The position numbers and the translations under genes were made by a program. The notes under the pieces were generated by a model. The model made no database searches, had not been told where the DNA came from, and worked only from the letters and a program-made list of their open reading frames with translations. From a bacterium (GTDB taxonomy: Bacteria > Patescibacteriota > Microgenomatia > Woykebacterales > RBG-16-39-9b): a stretch of DNA of 64,000 nucleotides. Positions 6,245 through 62,844 of the stretch are shown here, piece after piece (the stretch's first letter is position 1; every line of letters begins with the position of its first letter). The stretch spans positions 458,460-522,459 of the forward strand of contig JAUYID010000009.1 in NCBI GenBank assembly GCA_030704665.1, read 5' to 3'.

Positions 6245-6786
6245 AAATTAAGGGCTTTTTTCAGTTTTTTTAGGGCCCGAAACTTAAGGATTCTTAGAGA
6301 GCCCTCGGACCGGCCCAAAATCTTGCCAATTTCTTTGAAACTGTAATCTTCGATATTGCTGAGAACAAGAACTTGTCGTTCTTCTTCTGGAAGTTTGTTG
6401 ATTTCGACCAAAGTTGCTTTCAGTAAGTCCTTGTTTTCAAAGTCCTCGGTGTGGTCGAGACCTTCGAAGTCCTCAAACAAGGTCGATTCAGTGAGGCGAT
6501 CCTTGTTGCGGTAGTGGTCGATGATCAAGTTGCGCGCAATGGCAAAAAGCCAAGAGACAAAGCTAGACTTTTTTTTGAACGTGCCAAGTTTCTCAAAAGC
6601 CTTGAGAAAAATAGTTTGGGTCAGATCTTCGGCGGTTTTCCGATCTCCCACTTTGAAATAAGTAAAGCGGTAGATCTGGTCCACAAAATTGTCATAAAGT
6701 TTTCCGAAGGCTTCTGTTCTCCCATTTTGGGCAGCTGCAACCAAGTTCTCGACAGAATGCTCGGTCTTATTTCGGTTGAAGAGCAT
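6241..6786 (-). CDS. ECF-type RNA polymerase sigma-70 family factor
   Basis: Region 2 motifs LVAAAQNGRTEAFGKLYDNFVDQIYRFTYFKV...DLTQTIFLKAFEKL. Region 4 motif LPEEERQVLVLSNIEDYSFKEIGKILGRSEGSLRI. Confidence 0.8.
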   Translation of the reverse strand: MLFNRNKTEHSVENLVAAAQNGRTEAFGKLYDNFVDQIYRFTYFKVGDRKTAEDLTQTIFLKAFEKLGTFKKKSSFVSWLFAIARNLIIDHYRNKDRLTESTLFEDFEGLDHTEDFENKDLLKATLVEINKLPEEERQVLVLSNIEDYSFKEIGKILGRSEGSLRILKFRALKKLKKALNL

Positions 6787-6955
6787 AGAGCTATTGTAGC
6801 GCGTCCTGCAACCCTTGTTTCTGCAGCTATAAAGTATTGACGAGATTGTGGGTGAGTTGTTACAGGAAAGCGGACGAGAGTTTAAAAGGTTGTTTCTCCC
6901 GCCGCCTCGTTTACCGGTGAGGTGAACGATTTTTGGCGGCGGGAGTCTTCTCTCT

Positions 6956-7297
6956 TCAGACGAAACATCTGATCGCGGCAGCACTGCTTGTCACAAAGAA
7001 GAGCAGCACGACTGCGAAGGCGTCGAAGAGAGCACAGAGCAGCAAAAGGCCTACCGTGGTCTCATTGGTTCTGCGGTAGATCTTGGCGTTGTCTGTTTTG
7101 CGCAATACTGCCTCGAGTGCGTAGGTTGCGCCAATCCCAACCACGACCGCAGTGAGGATGAGGCTGACTTCGGCGACGAACCCAAGGTTGTCTACCCTTA
7201 GATCAGCCGATATGATGGCCAGCGCCCAAGCACCGAGAACGAGAGCGACGGTGCTGGCTAGAACGGCTCTCAAGGTTATATTTGAGAGAGTGGTCAT
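6956..7297 (-). CDS. Small integral membrane protein, 113 aa, three transmembrane helices
   Basis: Last gene of a four-gene minus-strand cluster of small membrane proteins. GC-rich. Confidence 0.45.
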   Translation of the reverse strand: MTTLSNITLRAVLASTVALVLGAWALAIISADLRVDNLGFVAEVSLILTAVVVGIGATYALEAVLRKTDNAKIYRRTNETTVGLLLLCALFDAFAVVLLFFVTSSAAAIRCFV

Positions 7298-7313
7298 TTG
7301 CCTTCTCCTTTAC

Positions 7314-7637
7314 TTACAGAGACCAAACTCCAACTAGGAGCAACAGCTCTAGGACGAAAAAGAGTGCTCCGAAACACAAAGTAAGGGCCGTGGTGTCGTC
7401 GTTTATGCCCTTTTCTCTGTCAGAGAGGTAGTCCCTTTCGGGAAGATTCCAAGCGACAACCAAGGCGACCACGCCAACAAGGACGGAAATCACCCAGGCG
7501 AGGACAAAGCTGGTGTCTGGATCGAATCTCACCTTTGCCAAGAATGCCCAGTCGAAGAGAGCGAAGACTGGAGCCGAGAAAGCAATCCAGCGAATCCAGC
7601 GGGTCCGGGTGTAATGACTGTTGTCTATCTTCGACAC
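7314..7637 (-). CDS. Small integral membrane protein, about 107 aa, GTG start
   Basis: An AGGAGAG SD precedes a GTG at 7637. Confidence 0.4.
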   Translation of the reverse strand: MSKIDNSHYTRTRWIRWIAFSAPVFALFDWAFLAKVRFDPDTSFVLAWVISVLVGVVALVVAWNLPERDYLSDREKGINDDTTALTLCFGALFFVLELLLLVGVWSL

Positions 7638-7651
7638 CGGTTCTCTCCTTC

Positions 7652-7756
7652 TTATCGTCTGTCGAACAGAATCGTCGCCAGTGCCATCACAACGAGGACG
7701 GTCAGTACGACGACCCAAACTGTTAGGTCATTTGGAAGGACTGAAAGTAGTTCCAT
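7652..7756 (-). CDS. 34-aa hydrophobic micro-protein (MELLSVLPNDLTVWVVVLTVLVVMALATILFDRR)
   Basis: Single transmembrane helix in tight series with the neighbouring small membrane ORFs. Below the size cutoff of the ORF track. Confidence 0.3.
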   Translation of the reverse strand: MELLSVLPNDLTVWVVVLTVLVVMALATILFDRR

Positions 7757-7767
7757 TGTCAGTTCTC

Positions 7768-7887
7768 TCACCTTCTGCGCAGTCCGGAAATGATTGCGCC
7801 CAGGCCGAGAGCGACAAGGATGCCTCCCAGCACCCAGATTGTGCCTGAGTTGGCGACCTCGTTGGCGGCAAGAAACGTTTCAAGCAT
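7768..7887 (-). CDS. 39-aa hydrophobic micro-protein (MLETFLAANEVANSGTIWVLGGILVALGLGAIISGLRRR)
   Basis: A strong AAGGAGG SD lies 6 nt upstream. First gene of the small-membrane-protein cluster. Confidence 0.35.
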   Translation of the reverse strand: MLETFLAANEVANSGTIWVLGGILVALGLGAIISGLRRR

Positions 7888-7967
7888 GATCTGCCTCCTT
7901 GATCGCTACCATTATATTACTCAGAGTAAAGATTTACATTGTCGAAGAGAAGTTTTAAACTTGGTTT

Positions 7968-8321
7968 ATGCCTTATTCAGTTGAAGAAACACGGGATTTT
8001 ACGGTTTATAAAGTGGACAATTTTTTTACCTTTCAGGATATGGACGCTCTTACCGAGCAGTTCGATCAATTGCTTGAGAAAGACCCGGCCGCGCGCGTCC
8101 TGCTTGATTTCTCGGCGCAAACTGGCTATGAAGAGGCAACAATCAAGGCGGCCTTCCGCCGTATCGACAAAGGTTTTCCCCGGAGCCTAAAAATGGCGAT
8201 TCTCTACGCCGGCGAAGGCGGTATTTACAAACACGTTCTAGCAATGCTGGCCGCTGCCATGCCGGAAGTAGCTAAGTTTTTCTCCAGTCGCGCCGAAGCT
8301 GAAGCTTGGCTCAAAAGTTAA
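7968..8321 (+). CDS. STAS/SpoIIAA-like small protein (putative anti-sigma-factor antagonist or DUF1987-like)
   Basis: About 117 aa with an alpha/beta pattern, VLLDFSAQTGYEEATIKAAF. Confidence 0.4.
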   Translation: MPYSVEETRDFTVYKVDNFFTFQDMDALTEQFDQLLEKDPAARVLLDFSAQTGYEEATIKAAFRRIDKGFPRSLKMAILYAGEGGIYKHVLAMLAAAMPEVAKFFSSRAEAEAWLKS

Positions 8322-43039: not shown

Positions 43040-43767
43040 AACTCCAAAACCTGAACCTAGACGAATTTTACGGTTACCTCATACCGATAGTTACTTTTCT
43101 GGTTATCTTTGGTTTGGTTCCCTTTGTTATTTTTCCACAGTTGACCAAAATCAAGGATCAAAGCGACGCTATCCGCCAAAAAGACCAGCGTTTGACTAGA
43201 ATAAATGAAAAACTCTCTTTTCTTGCTCAACTTAAAAACAACGAAGCGGCTCTAGTCGAAAGTTTGAACAATGTTGAATTGGCCCTTCCCTCGGGTAAAG
43301 GTTTGGCCCCTCTGATTGAAGGACTAAAAAAACTGGCAGGAAATTCCAATATGGTCTTGAGTTCGGTGACCTTAAGGCCAGGTAAGGTGGCAACTGCTTC
43401 GGCCAAACTTGCCTCTGCGCAAGAAAGTTCCAAGTTGACTTTGAATGTCCAACTGAGTGGCGAAATTGCCGGGTTTGAAAAGTTTTTGACCCTGCTAGAA
43501 CGAGCAAAAAGAATTGTTCTCGTAGAAAGTTTTGCAGCGAACTCAAATCCTGACGGAGAAAGTACTTTTTCCCTGAGCTTGAACGCCCCCTTTAGAGAAG
43601 TTCAGAATCAGGCTACTTCCGAGGATCAAGTCGCCGAGGATATTCCTTCTTTGAGTAGTGAAGAACAAGATTTATACAACAAACTTCAAAGTGACTTTGT
43701 ACTTTACAGTGGTGAAGTCAGTGCTTGTGAGAACTGTACTGGCAAGGTAAAGAACCCTTTTCCCTAG
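43036..43767 (+). CDS. pilO: Type IV pilus assembly protein PilO-like
   Basis: Overlaps pilN. Transmembrane helix plus coiled-coil. Confidence 0.55.
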   Translation: MKLQNLNLDEFYGYLIPIVTFLVIFGLVPFVIFPQLTKIKDQSDAIRQKDQRLTRINEKLSFLAQLKNNEAALVESLNNVELALPSGKGLAPLIEGLKKLAGNSNMVLSSVTLRPGKVATASAKLASAQESSKLTLNVQLSGEIAGFEKFLTLLERAKRIVLVESFAANSNPDGESTFSLSLNAPFREVQNQATSEDQVAEDIPSLSSEEQDLYNKLQSDFVLYSGEVSACENCTGKVKNPFP

Positions 43768-44468
43768 TCGAGTAGATCAGGTCTGACTTTCTTAGTTTTT
43801 TCAAAAGCCGTCTCATGTCTCCATTTTTTGATTTTCTCATGATTTCCGGAAAGTAAAATTTCCGGAACCTTTTGGCCTTGAAACTCGGCTGGTCTAGTAT
43901 AGTGGGGGTATTCAAGAAGCATTTGTTTTTTACCCTCAAGCTCAAAAACCGAAAAAGACTCCTGCTGCGTTGACTTCTCCTTTCCCACAAAACCAGGGAC
44001 AAGTCGAGCTACAGTTTCAAGAACGACCAGAGCGGCAGTTTCCCCACCGTTTAAAATATAGTCCCCAATGGAAATTTCCTGATCAACAAAAAGATCAGTA
44101 AAGCGCTGGTCTACTCCCTCATAGCGACCTGCGACCAAAATTAACTGCTCCTTTTGTACAAGTTCGGCGGCAAGTTTCTGAGTCAGTCTTGTCCCGCCTG
44201 GGCTGAGGAGAATGACTTGTGAGTTTTTGGTCCTTTTCACAGAAGAGAGAGCTTTACTCAAAACATCAACACGCAGAACCATACCTTCTCCACCACCAAA
44301 CGGAGAATCATCAACCTTTTTGTGAGGCCCCTCACCAAAGTCCCTGATATCTAGCAAATTTATTTCTAAAAGATCTTTGGCGAGAGCTTTCTGAAGCAAA
44401 CTTTCCTTCAGGGGGCTAGCGAAAAACTGGGGAAAAAGAGTAAGGATGTCAAAACGCAGTTTCGGCAT
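43764..44468 (-). CDS. trmD: tRNA (guanine37-N1)-methyltransferase
   Basis: MPKLRFDILTLFPQFF. SPOUT knot motifs. Confidence 0.9.
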   Translation of the reverse strand: MPKLRFDILTLFPQFFASPLKESLLQKALAKDLLEINLLDIRDFGEGPHKKVDDSPFGGGEGMVLRVDVLSKALSSVKRTKNSQVILLSPGGTRLTQKLAAELVQKEQLILVAGRYEGVDQRFTDLFVDQEISIGDYILNGGETAALVVLETVARLVPGFVGKEKSTQQESFSVFELEGKKQMLLEYPHYTRPAEFQGQKVPEILLSGNHEKIKKWRHETAFEKTKKVRPDLLD

Positions 44469-57786: not shown

Positions 57787-59544
57787 TTATTTTCGTTCCG
57801 AAACTTCTTTTTGCAGTTGGGTGGCGGCTTCAGAAATTGTTAAAACTTTAAGTTCTTTGGAGCCTTTGCTGCGAACTGAAACAGTTTGTTGAGCCTGCTC
57901 CCGGTCTCCCAAGACAAAAAGATAAGGGATTTTTTGTAGCTCTGCTTCTCGGATTTTTGCTTGCATGGTTTCGTTCTTAGAGTTGACCTCGACTCGCAGG
58001 CTAGAGTCTTGGAGATGCCCTTTTACTTTTTCCGCGTACTCAAGATGCCTTTCGGCAATTGGAATTAGCTCAACTTGGATTGGAGCAAGCCAAAGAGGAA
58101 AGTCTCCACCGTAGTGCTCAATCAGAAAAGCCATGGTTCTTTCTAAAGCCCCAACTGAAGAGCGGTGAATGACAATCGGTTGCTGGGCTTTCCCTTTTTC
58201 GTCAATATACTCGAGATTGAAACGTCTAGGCATAACAAAATCGTACTGGACAGTGAAGGCAGTTTCTTCTTTACCTAAGACATTCTTTATCTGGACATCG
58301 ATCTTCGGCCCATAAAAAGCAGCCTCGTTTTCAGCTTCAAAAAAAGGTGCTTTCGTTTCTTGTAAAACTTCGCGCAGTGTTTTTTCCGCTTTTTCCCAGG
58401 CTACATCGTCCTTGAAATATTTGCTCTCCTCCCCTCTATCTCCCAAGGAAAGGCGGTAGCGGTAGTCTTTGCCTTTCTCCAAACCTAAAGTAGAGTTCAC
58501 AAAATCGATTAAGTCCAAAACCTTTTTAATCTCATTCTTAGCCCCCTCGGGAGCAACAAAAATATGGGCATCGGAAAGGGTAAAAGTTCTGACTCTCATC
58601 AAACCCGAAAGTTCCCCGCTCTTTTCGTAGCGAAATTGGGGAGAGATTTCGGCTAAGCGCAAAGGCAAGTCACGGTAGCTACGCAGCCCTGCTTTATAGA
58701 GCATGAAATGATGTGGACAGGTCATCGGTCGCAAAATCAACTCCTCTTCATCCACTTTCATGACTGGGTACATCGTTTCTTTGTAGTAGGGGTAGTGGCC
58801 GCTAGTTTTGTAGAGTTCAACTTTAGCCAAAGGTGGAGTCAGCACGTGTTCGTAGCCTCTTTTTATTTCTTCATCTACAATGAAGCGTTCGAGAACGCGA
58901 CGCAGAGTTGCCCCCTTGCCCGTCAGCATTGGCAAACCCTTGCCAACCAGATCGGAATTAACAAACAGGCCGAGCTCCTTGCCAAGGAGCCGATGGTCTC
59001 GTTTTTTGGCCTCCTGGAGCCGAGTCAAGTAAGCTTTCAGTTCTTTATCATCTGTCCAGACGGTGCCGTAGACCCGTGTTAATTGTTTATTTTTTTCATT
59101 ACCACGCCAATAGGCGCCGGCGAGTGAGGTGAGTTTAAAACTCCCTATTTGTTTGCTGTTTTCTAGGTGGGGACCCTCGCAGAGATCAATGAAGTTTCCC
59201 GTCTCATAAAAAGAAACTTTCTTCTCACCCTTGTCTTTGAGCTCCTTGGTCAGTTCGACTTTATAAGGTTGGGAAATTTTTTCGTTAAATTTAATAGCTT
59301 CAGTGACAGTTTTTTCAGCGCGAGTGAAATTTAAATTTCTTTTTTTAATGTCTAGCATTTTCTTTTCTATCTTTTCCAAATCAGACTCTGTAATAGCCTT
59401 TTCAAAGTCAAAATCATAGTAAAAACCGTCTTCAATTACCGGCCCAATACCAAGCTTGGTGTCTGGCCAAAGCTCGAGCACGGCTGCAGCCAAGAGGTGA
59501 GCAGTGGAATGACGCATCTTTTCTAGCTGGCTATAATTTTTCAT
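57787..59544 (-). CDS. thrS: Threonyl-tRNA synthetase (lacks the N-terminal TGS domain)
   Basis: Editing-domain HSTAHLL. Class II motifs. Anticodon-binding domain. Confidence 0.95.
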   Translation of the reverse strand: MKNYSQLEKMRHSTAHLLAAAVLELWPDTKLGIGPVIEDGFYYDFDFEKAITESDLEKIEKKMLDIKKRNLNFTRAEKTVTEAIKFNEKISQPYKVELTKELKDKGEKKVSFYETGNFIDLCEGPHLENSKQIGSFKLTSLAGAYWRGNEKNKQLTRVYGTVWTDDKELKAYLTRLQEAKKRDHRLLGKELGLFVNSDLVGKGLPMLTGKGATLRRVLERFIVDEEIKRGYEHVLTPPLAKVELYKTSGHYPYYKETMYPVMKVDEEELILRPMTCPHHFMLYKAGLRSYRDLPLRLAEISPQFRYEKSGELSGLMRVRTFTLSDAHIFVAPEGAKNEIKKVLDLIDFVNSTLGLEKGKDYRYRLSLGDRGEESKYFKDDVAWEKAEKTLREVLQETKAPFFEAENEAAFYGPKIDVQIKNVLGKEETAFTVQYDFVMPRRFNLEYIDEKGKAQQPIVIHRSSVGALERTMAFLIEHYGGDFPLWLAPIQVELIPIAERHLEYAEKVKGHLQDSSLRVEVNSKNETMQAKIREAELQKIPYLFVLGDREQAQQTVSVRSKGSKELKVLTISEAATQLQKEVSERK

Positions 59545-60510: not shown

Positions 60511-60624
60511 AGAAACTCTTTCAGACGGTTACCGTTTGTGCTGCAGTTGATAACCGTAAGTGGGGGTATTCTAACAAATAAGTGAAGAGGTGTAAATTGA
60601 GAGGTCTAGGGGCTCGAGTTTAGC

Positions 60625-60661
60625 CGAAATATATCTCGAGCCCCAAAGTCTATCTCTAGCT
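60625..60661. other. Strong 10-bp-stem hairpin (GGGGCTCGAG...CTCGAGCCCC) at the clpP-proximal edge of the GC-rich islet
   Basis: Perfect inverted repeat with a 16-nt loop. No adjacent U-tract. Confidence 0.4.
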
Positions 60662-60684
60662 GTCTTCCGTGGTTCGGCCCTTAT

Positions 60685-60855
60685 CTACTGGGTGAGTTGA
60701 GTTCGCTGCAGCGCTCTTTCTTGCCCCCTACGTGCTTTTTCAAGTCCGGCACGGCGCTGCGTAGAGAGCTTCGGGTCCTTTAGCTTCTCCTTGATATCGG
60801 CGAGGTTAATCACCTGGGCAATGAGCTTGCTACCAGTACCTTCACCGAAGTCCAT
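60685..60855 (-). CDS. Mini-ORF C, 56 aa, hypothetical. Its ATG overlaps the stop of ORF B (TGATG).
   Basis: Translational coupling. GC-rich islet. Confidence 0.3.
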   Translation of the reverse strand: MDFGEGTGSKLIAQVINLADIKEKLKDPKLSTQRRAGLEKARRGQERALQRTQLTQ

Positions 60856-61067
60856 CAGAGCCCCCCTTCGATGGTGTGATCACCCATCAGCTCGTCGCGG
60901 AGTTCTCCGAAGACCTCCTCGATGAGCTTCTCACATTCGGGATGGGAGGCCTTCATGCTGACATAGCGCTCCCAGAGCAGCCTGATCGTTTGCTTGAAAC
61001 GACCGAGTTCCTCCTTAATCTCCTCACGAGTGAGGTTTGAAGAAGTCTGCGTTGCTACCTCACTCAT
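60855..61067 (-). CDS. Mini-ORF B, 70 aa, acidic hypothetical protein
   Basis: A GAAGGAG SD lies inside the 3' end of ORF A. Confidence 0.4.
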   Translation of the reverse strand: MSEVATQTSSNLTREEIKEELGRFKQTIRLLWERYVSMKASHPECEKLIEEVFGELRDELMGDHTIEGGL

Positions 61068-61072
61068 CAGCT

Positions 61073-61261
61073 CTACTCCTTCAATGCCTGACGGCTTGAG
61101 TTGAAAGCGTCATCCTCGTAGTCGCCACGAAGCTCGAGGGCAGCCTCAGCAGGATCACGCCGTGACAAGGGGTACTTCAGCTCTGGACCACAGATGTAGG
61201 TCGGCGTCCGCTCGCCCCTCGCCACTTCCCTCTTCTGCGTTGTTACGCTTGTTTGATCCAC
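61073..61261 (-). CDS. Mini-ORF A, about 62 aa, GTG start
   Basis: An AAGGAGG SD lies 5 nt before the GTG at 61261. It is the first ORF after the atypical tRNA. Confidence 0.35.
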   Translation of the reverse strand: MDQTSVTTQKREVARGERTPTYICGPELKYPLSRRDPAEAALELRGDYEDDAFNSSRQALKE

Positions 61262-61380
61262 GTCTGCCTCCTTGCTGATCGCTAGCCGGTGCTTCCCCGG
61301 ACAGAGTCTTGGCACAGTAGTGGTTGGACCATTCGGCCCCTTGAAACTTACTTACCTCAGACACTGTCGTGATTCAGTTT

Positions 61381-61457
61381 TGGCAGTCTAGAGAGGAGTC
61401 GAACCTCTGGCCTCCAGATCCTCAATCTGGCGCTCTGCCAATCTGAGCTACTAGACT
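61381..61457 (-). tRNA. Atypical tRNA with anticodon GAG (Leu-type). It has a class I architecture with a 5-nt variable loop, an A1:U72 pair and a G73 discriminator.
   Basis: Perfect cloverleaf: AGTCTAG/CTAGACT acceptor, GCTC/GAGC D-stem, CCAGA-UUGAGGA-UCUGG anticodon arm, AGAGG-UUCGACU-CCUCU T-arm, encoded CCA. Confidence 0.6.
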
Positions 61458-61459
61458 AC

Positions 61460-61534
61460 TGGCGACCGAGACAGGATTCGAACCTGCAACATAGCGATTT
61501 GGAGTCGCCTGTTCTACCGTTGAACTACTCGGCC
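61460..61534 (-). tRNA. tRNA-Trp (anticodon CCA)
   Basis: GGCCGAG/CTCGGTC acceptor, anticodon loop CUCCAAA, UUCGAAU T-loop. Confidence 0.85.
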
Positions 61535-61670
61535 TTTGGCTAAAATAGCCTAACTCTTTTCGCTAACCTCCTTTCCTGACTCTCCGCTTTCGTCTACTTG
61601 TTGATTAGTGCTGGTCCTCTCAAGCTTTAGACTTGAAATCCGGATACTTGGGAGAAACGGATTTGGACCA

Positions 61671-61695
61671 CAAAAAAACCCCCTGACCGGGGGTT
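61671..61695 (-). terminator. Rho-independent terminator (CCCCCGGTCAGGGGG then TTTTTTT) downstream of the membrane-protein gene
   Basis: Hairpin plus a 7-U tract on the minus strand. Confidence 0.6.
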
Positions 61696-61850
61696 TACTT
61701 TCAAAGGATTTAGTCCTTTATACCCCCGAAGTCGTAAAACCCTTTACAAAAAGGGCTCTACAGGCGGTGGTAATTGGGCACATATACCTGTTCATTTCAA
61801 ATAAACTATAGCAAGCAGGGGCCAGCCTGTCAAGTCGATTGGGATTTAAG

Positions 61851-62757: not shown

Positions 62758-62844
62758 TGGTGCGGGTGAAGGGACTTGAACCCCCACGACCTTTTGGGTC
62801 ACAAGGTCCTAAACCTTGCGCGTCTGCCATTCCGCCACACCCGC
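62758..62844 (-). tRNA. tRNA-Leu (anticodon UAG), class II with a long variable arm
   Basis: GCGGGTG/CACCCGC acceptor, anticodon loop UUUAGGA, 15-nt variable arm, ACCA end. Confidence 0.85.

Follow-up and report, generated by a model that had tools for sequence, protein, structure and literature searches.

The window, a stretch of 64,000 nucleotides from a member of the Microgenomates (CPR), carries on its minus strand murT, a gatD-like gene, tRNA-Leu(UAG), a liaF-like gene, clpP, tRNA-Val, a DUF5665 gene, thrS, sua5, infC, rpmI, rplT, pheS and pheT, in that order. After the liaF-like gene and ahead of the clpP promoter (60568-60596) the series is interrupted by a GC-rich islet (60600-61675, minus strand; boundaries approximate and drawn from composition) which contains two tRNA genes and three small ORFs. 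The first is a tRNA-Trp(CCA) (61460-61534, minus strand) with G1-C72, G2.U71 and G73, unlike the A1-U72/G2-C71 set of bacterial tRNA-Trp; the original prediction had passed over this gene. It ends 2 nt upstream of the gene that is the subject of this analysis, a class I tRNA with anticodon GAG, A1:U72, G73, G37 and an encoded CCA end (61381-61457, minus strand; tRNA(GAG) in what follows), and the two tRNAs are probably co-transcribed. The three small genes lie directly 3' of tRNA(GAG) on the same strand: ORF1 (61073-61261, 62 amino acids, GTG start after AAGGAGG), ORF2 (60855-61067, 70 amino acids) and ORF3 (60685-60855, 56 amino acids), each preceded by a Shine-Dalgarno site. The sequence also shows a GC-rich hairpin (GGGGCUCGAG...CUCGAGCCCC, 60609-60644, minus strand) where the islet ends on its downstream side, shortly ahead of the clpP promoter.

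ARAGORN calls tRNA(GAG) as a 77-nt tRNA with anticodon gag, and it reaches 67.1 bits with the Rfam model RF00005 (gathering score 29; E = 2e-12), on a par with the tRNA-Val and tRNA-Trp nearby. Its sequence is AGUCUAG UA GCUC AGAUUGGCA GAGC G CCAGA UUGAGGA UCUGG AGGCC AGAGG UUCGACU CCUCU CUAGACU G CCA. The variable loop has 5 nt (AGGCC), which places the tRNA in class I as had been claimed, and the near-perfect cloverleaf described in the original prediction is borne out: it is the minimum-energy fold, and all 21 stem pairs are standard. Stems of 7, 4, 5 and 5 bp, U8, A14, G18G19, U33 and a T-loop of the UUCRA type are those of a canonical elongator tRNA; the nucleotides of the tertiary interactions are all present (U8, A14, G15:C48, G18G19, T-loop UUCGA), and the anticodon loop reads U33, G34 A35 G36, G37, A38. 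On this evidence the window tRNA(GAG) is genuine, has the canonical structure of an elongator-type tRNA, and carries an anticodon that pairs with CUC and CUU.

A class II tRNA-Leu(UAG) with A73 was said to lie 1.3 kb away, and ARAGORN and Rfam both find it there (62758-62844, minus strand); it is syntenic in relatives and is therefore a core gene. Descent of tRNA(GAG) from this tRNA by deletion of the long arm was considered and rejected, as the acceptor stems, AGUCUAG and GCGGGUG, are unrelated when read side by side without alignment. A BLAST search for a parent isotype among phage, Escherichia coli and plasmid sequences returned generic partial matches of 75-85% to Arg, Asn and Phe tRNAs, or none. 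With relaxed Rfam thresholds a sub-threshold match to YrlA (31 bits against a threshold of 69) extends across both islet tRNAs; it reflects the tRNA-like module of the YrlA family. The gene for the tRNA m1G37 methyltransferase, trmD, is within the window as stated (43764-44468, minus strand; PF01746, 192.5 bits), and TrmD could modify G37 of tRNA(GAG), which follows G36. This G36-G37 context holds for the window tRNA but not for its counterpart in the relative L007, which has A37.

The islet, about 1.1 kb long, has a GC content of 52-60% compared to about 43% for the host, and the GC3 of its ORFs is 0.60-0.68 compared to 0.41-0.45 for thrS, clpP and the liaF-like gene. Another region of elevated GC (0.525 against about 0.45) covers positions 1-2000 of the window. 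CUC makes up 11 of the 20 Leu codons of the islet ORFs (55%; 6 of 8 in ORF2 and 4 of 7 in ORF3) but only 295 of the 1917 Leu codons of the host genes (15%), so that the perfect-match codon of tRNA(GAG) is the islet's preferred Leu codon.

The islet ORFs matched no Pfam or PHROG family, and no relatives were found among viral contigs. An exhaustive search of 1.84 billion representative proteins with ORF1 returned only ORF1 itself and an irrelevant repeat protein, while the three ORFs concatenated as one query gave no matches, not even to themselves, the index probably missing proteins as short as these. AlphaFold models ORF2 as a predicted helical hairpin, for which no matching fold was found; its prediction for ORF1 is of low confidence. 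The islet contains no mobility genes (integrase, relaxase or phage genes), no integrase or att-type repeats were found flanking it, and neither the islet nor the genes beside it include one for a partner synthetase, the ORFs being orphans of 56-70 amino acids and the neighbours the liaF-like gene and clpP. Of the roles first proposed for the tRNA, that of an integration target is not supported, given the lack of flanking repeats or an integrase and the fact that tRNA(GAG) is absent, not merely unoccupied, in relatives. The proposal of a mobile-element tRNA fares better, since the islet is GC-rich and lineage-specific, but mobility is indicated by composition and distribution only.

Immediately upstream of the islet lies a transcription unit (61676-61833, minus strand) with a strong sigma-70-type promoter (TTGACA-17-TATAGT), a conserved transcript of about 115 nt that includes a conserved hairpin (AGAGCCCUUUUUGUAAAGGGU), and an intrinsic terminator at 61676-61696. 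The unit matches no Rfam family. It is shared by the window and L007 (L007:3183-3341), where it is 75-78% identical, and L011 and L012 lack it. It may represent a small RNA, encode a 25-codon peptide (MNRYMCPITTACRALFVKGFTTSGV, without a Shine-Dalgarno site), or serve as an attenuator of the downstream tRNAs. In the interval from its terminator to the tRNAs no promoter was recognised; the unit may be part of the insertion, or may drive or attenuate transcription of the tRNAs.

By its ThrS homologues the window genome belongs to the Microgenomates of the Patescibacteria/CPR, close to Gottesmanbacteria and Daviesbacteria. Judged by ThrS, its closest relative is L007 (77% identical), followed by L034 (69%), L012 (66%) and L011 (65%). 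Among the relatives examined only L007 has an islet at the liaF-like/clpP site; it is absent in L011, L012 and L034. In L011 an interval of about 165 bp without any tRNA separates the liaF-like gene from clpP, and in L012 and L034 the region upstream of clpP is also free of tRNAs. The window and L007 are the only two islet-bearing genomes in the collections searched. The L007 insert carries a class I tRNA(GAG) with three small ORFs downstream of it, lacks a tRNA-Trp, and has a GC content of 0.587 against 0.39-0.42 in its flanks. ORF1 and an L007 ORF share a 24-residue motif (LKYPLSRRDPAEAALELRGDYEDD), and ORF3 is weakly similar to the L007 ORF l2. The islet is compositionally foreign and lineage-restricted, and the persistence of its high GC3 in both diverged lineages could result from repeated site-specific acquisition or from selection. 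Upstream of clpP in L007 (4522-4563) and L011 (8718-8767) there is a short ORF that repeats the ClpP N-terminus (MDLVPMVI...) and then stops. This ORF, for which no equivalent is evident in the window, may have a leader or regulatory role or be what is left of a duplication.

The two tRNAs(GAG) are about 69% identical, whereas the adjacent tRNA-Val genes are 90% identical. Fifty-two of the 77 positions are invariant and 25 are changed or lost, yet both tRNAs keep the GAG anticodon and have standard pairing throughout their 21 stem pairs. Seven of these pairs are changed on both sides between the window and L007, a number of compensatory changes matched by 2 of 500 shuffles, with slid controls giving 0-3. 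Taken together, the standard pairing, the compensatory changes and the retention of GAG despite this divergence show that the tRNA shape and the anticodon are kept by selection and that both genes specify functional RNAs. A sequencing error in the anticodon, which had been raised as a possibility, is unlikely because the syntenic tRNA of the independent relative L007 carries GAG too. The differences between the two include nucleotide 73 (G in the window, U in L007), pair 1:72 (A:U and G.U), nucleotide 37 (G and A), position 38 and the length of the D-loop.

CUC and CUU are among the commonest Leu codons of the window (17.3 and 25.2 per thousand in 55 ORFs) and together account for 4.3% of all codons. 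Their meaning was examined in a ThrS alignment of 120 sequences and in eight syntenic housekeeping genes of the window aligned with those of six relatives. Of the conserved ThrS columns, Leu occupies 9 of the 10 with CUC and all 6 with CUU. In the eight genes, window CUC codons (n = 37) align with Leu in 73% of cases and CUU codons (n = 58) in 59%, rates within the range of those for the other four Leu codons, and CUC is read as Leu in L008, L010, L011, L012 and L034. CUC and CUU therefore mean Leu genome-wide and in relatives without the islet. As those relatives decode CUC as Leu, the clade could decode this codon before the islet arrived and presumably still can; a canonical tRNA-Leu(GAG) is presumably encoded elsewhere in the genome. 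CUC is used more in the window than in relatives, with 14 CUC codons in thrS (57787-59544, minus strand) compared to 4-5 in the ThrS genes of relatives, and 37 across the eight genes compared to 9-30. This may be due to a slightly higher GC content or to the extra GAG tRNA.

The window and L007 tRNAs were scored against the 20 bacterial identity sets compiled by Giegé and Eriani (PMC9976931), and neither tRNA(GAG) satisfies a complete set. Both have none of the four Leu determinants (A73, A15:U48, A20a and the long arm). In the window tRNA G15:C48 takes the place of A15:U48 and position 20a is missing, and the discriminator is G73 in the window and U73 in L007 where A73 would be expected of a tRNA-Leu. 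What the window tRNA does have in common with tRNA-Leu is the GAG anticodon, with cognate codons that align with Leu. Its acceptor end and core resemble those of tRNA-Trp (G73, A1-U72, G2-C71 and A9), but the remaining Trp determinants are missing: U3-A70, C4-G69, U5-A68 and GAG stand in place of G3-C70, G4-C69, G5-C68 and C34 C35 A36. A tRNA-Trp identity was rejected on the anticodon, which is not CCA, and TrpRS is heavily dependent on CCA (PMC9976931). The acceptor end of the L007 tRNA is Cys/Arg-like.

The original prediction held that such a tRNA should not be charged by LeuRS. The lack of Leu determinants agrees with this, but the short variable arm is in itself no barrier: the E. coli LeuRS can do without the long arm, and the tRNA-Leu of animal mitochondria belongs to class I (PMC9976931). 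A73 is crucial for LeuRS, and G73 is an anti-determinant against LeuRS in tRNA-Ser (PMC9976931), so that the obstacle to charging of tRNA(GAG) by LeuRS is G73 and not the short arm. We nevertheless take Leu to be the most probable amino acid of tRNA(GAG), though charging may be inefficient. Our reasons are that, among the synthetases blind to the anticodon, LeuRS alone has no need of a structural element which tRNA(GAG) lacks outright, and that efficient charging with another amino acid would corrupt 4.3% of codons.

Class I tRNAs with a GAG anticodon are rare, sporadic and typically found in accessory DNA. A strict pattern retrieved five unrelated matches from about 185,000 GTDB species genomes, none of them from CPR. 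A looser pattern retrieved 20 from JGI metagenomes, with no syntenic or CPR orthologues among them, and two tRNA-pattern scans of viral contigs, one with the looser pattern, found none. Those of L006, L018, L023/L032 and L029 are inside tRNA arrays that look like the arrays of phages or mobile elements. Among these dense arrays L018 has a predicted suppressor tRNA (anticodon UUA, 969-1039) and L029 has several tRNAs with abnormal anticodon loops (6723-8287). Eight soil contigs (L003, L014, L015, L017, L020, L024, L030 and L031) carry an Acidobacteria-type family of class I tRNA(GAG), of 77 nt with U1.G72, A73, the anticodon loop UUGAGGA and an encoded CCA, for which no published description was found. 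The neighbouring genes include a TrwC relaxase gene in L030 and HTH_17 and AbiEii genes in L020. Having A73, the members of this family could be genuine class I tRNA-Leu carried on conjugative elements.

The explanation we favour, at about an even chance, is that tRNA(GAG) is a horizontally acquired accessory tRNA which decodes CUY. On this best reading of the locus the gene is accessory and not the genome's core tRNA-Leu, and the genetic code is unchanged. In one Microgenomates sub-lineage, an islet comprising the tRNA-Trp, tRNA(GAG) and three orphan genes would have entered the interval that separates the liaF-like gene from clpP. Within it, tRNA(GAG) would be co-expressed with the islet genes and would add CUY-decoding capacity that matches their codon bias. 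This is how the tRNAs of phages and mobile elements behave, matching the codon bias of their own carrier. Counting against this explanation are the absence of all four LeuRS determinants and the anti-determinant role of G73 in tRNA-Ser. So do the differences at N73, 1:72 and N37 from the syntenic L007 tRNA, which a single conserved charging enzyme could hardly accommodate, the failure to find an integrase, att repeats, viral relatives or a promoter between the upstream terminator and the tRNAs, and the high GC3 that persists in both diverged lineages.

A less likely but credible account is that tRNA(GAG) is no substrate for translation at all, and would be either an uncharged or barely charged module for RNase P/Z processing or stabilisation of the islet transcript, or a relic of integration. 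Its failure to satisfy any identity set would be explained in this way, as would the lack of conservation of the discriminator and of position 37 between the window and L007, and a position directly 5' of three genes with Shine-Dalgarno sites would suit a processing signal. A pure processing signal would not be expected to keep GAG while 25 other positions were changed or lost, however, nor does this account sit well with the intact CCA end and tertiary-interaction nucleotides or with an anticodon that fits the CUC bias of the islet, and a relic of integration finds no support in att-like repeats, none of which were found at the islet.

It is possible, though we think it unlikely, that the tRNAs(GAG) of the window and of L007 are both fast-evolving, cassette-borne class I CUY decoders that are charged outside the known identity sets, either by a CPR LeuRS tolerant of G73 and U73 or with another amino acid at CUC and CUU. 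If a CPR LeuRS does accept a class I tRNA with G73 or U73, these would be the first bacterial tRNA-Leu without both the long arm and A73, and with either charging option the cassette would be a portable decoding module accompanied by three orphan genes.

The narrower idea that tRNA(GAG) is a mis-decoder, deliberate or tolerated, which would insert an amino acid other than Leu at CUC and CUU at a low level, appears distinctly improbable. It has a precedent by analogy in tRNAProX of Streptomyces (PMC10404621), and it would accommodate the disagreement between body and anticodon, the four bacterial Trp determinants (G73, A1-U72, G2-C71 and A9) and a tRNA-Trp gene only 2 nt away. Charging with Trp would run against the absence of the CCA anticodon that TrpRS needs, and the Cys/Arg-like acceptor end in L007 leaves no consistent alternative identity. 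The islet has no partner synthetase gene, and CUY codons, at 4.3% of the total, show no sign of ambiguity at conserved Leu columns.

It is doubtful, to a still greater degree, that tRNA(GAG) is the sole core tRNA-Leu(GAG) of this genome and that the long arm and A73 were lost under different rules of a CPR LeuRS. CUC and CUU are frequent codons with the meaning Leu, neither the 64 kb window nor the 2.9 kb past its end that L001 covers showed a second GAG tRNA, and the raised CUC use of thrS could be read in the same sense. A core tRNA would not be expected to be missing from the syntenic site in L011, L012 and L034, which together with L008 and L010 decode CUC as Leu, or to evolve so much faster than other core tRNAs (69% identity compared to 90%) on DNA of foreign composition. 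The class II tRNA-Leu(UAG) of the same genome keeps A73, so the host LeuRS probably still reads A73.

We regard it as very unlikely that tRNA(GAG) is a pseudogene in decay, derived from a copy of a different class I tRNA by mutation of the anticodon to GAG. A single-base change from GAC, GAA, GAU, GGG or GUG would suffice, and some of the sporadic class I GAG tRNAs in metagenomes are visibly degenerate (for example, that of L021), but decay is at odds with 21 of 21 standard pairs, seven of them compensatory across two diverged genomes, with a score of 67 bits as high as that of neighbouring core tRNAs, and with the retention of GAG in both genomes. Reassignment of CUC and CUU to another amino acid, which was among the options first put forward and for which only the non-Leu-like tRNA body speaks, is refuted by codons that make up 4.3% of the total, fall on Leu in 15 of 16 conserved CUY columns of ThrS, and in the eight housekeeping genes align with Leu as often as the other four Leu codons do.

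tRNAs in which anticodon and body disagree are raw material for changes of the genetic code and for programmed mistranslation, and to our knowledge few have been characterised in bacteria. tRNA(GAG) is a clean example from CPR, with an anticodon kept across two diverged genomes while the supposed identity nucleotides change. Charging with Leu would widen the known substrate rules of bacterial LeuRS, while charging with another amino acid would make tRNA(GAG) a portable mis-decoding element. Even as an ordinary accessory tRNA it serves as a warning that a "tRNA-Leu" called from the anticodon alone can hide a foreign accessory tRNA in a MAG.

Compared to known systems, tRNA(GAG) has in common with the canonical class II tRNA-Leu(GAG) of bacteria its anticodon, the G36-G37 context for TrmD, and codons that mean Leu in this genome. 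It differs in having no long arm, in G73 for A73, in G15:C48 for A15:U48, in the lack of A20a, and in being fast-evolving and located on a foreign islet. Animal mitochondrial tRNA-Leu is likewise a Leu decoder without a long arm, with which LeuRS-type enzymes can work (PMC9976931). It keeps A73 (and A14) as the main determinant where the window tRNA has G73, and there is no evolutionary relationship between the two. The Acidobacteria-type family is more similar in form, being of 77 nt and class I with the UUGAGGA loop, a near-identical D-arm (GCUC AGNNUGGCA GAGC), the CCA end and an accessory context; it differs in U1.G72 and the LeuRS-compatible A73, in belonging to another phylum and in its relaxase and AbiE neighbours, and is about 70% identical to tRNA(GAG). 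The accessory tRNAs of phages, conjugative elements and tRNA arrays resemble it in their foreign, lineage-restricted site, in an anticodon that matches the codon bias of co-located genes and in their atypical sequence, whereas the islet is only about 1.1 kb long, has no integrase, relaxase, phage gene or att repeat, and showed no relatives in the viral contigs searched.

The best-characterised family with a mismatch of anticodon and isotype is tRNAProX (tRNAProA, ProT and ProN) of Streptomyces and Kitasatospora, which combines a proline body (C1:G72, A73) with the odd nucleotides A33, A34 and G21 and is encoded beside a dedicated ProRS paralogue (PMC10404621). tRNA(GAG) resembles it as an accessory gene whose body and anticodon disagree. 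It has A1:U72 and G73, no coherent alternative identity and no partner synthetase, and with neither a proline body nor an adjacent ProRS paralogue it was not assigned to this family. tRNAscan-SE 2.0 flags tRNAs in which the isotype model and the anticodon disagree, some of which are attributed to horizontal transfer, and a tRNA-Arg(ACG) of M. ruminantium scores best as Trp (PMC8450103). Such tRNAs are, like tRNA(GAG), high-scoring with a body at variance with the anticodon; they differ in organism, isotype and context. tRNA(GAG) belongs to this known class of isotype/anticodon-mismatch tRNAs.
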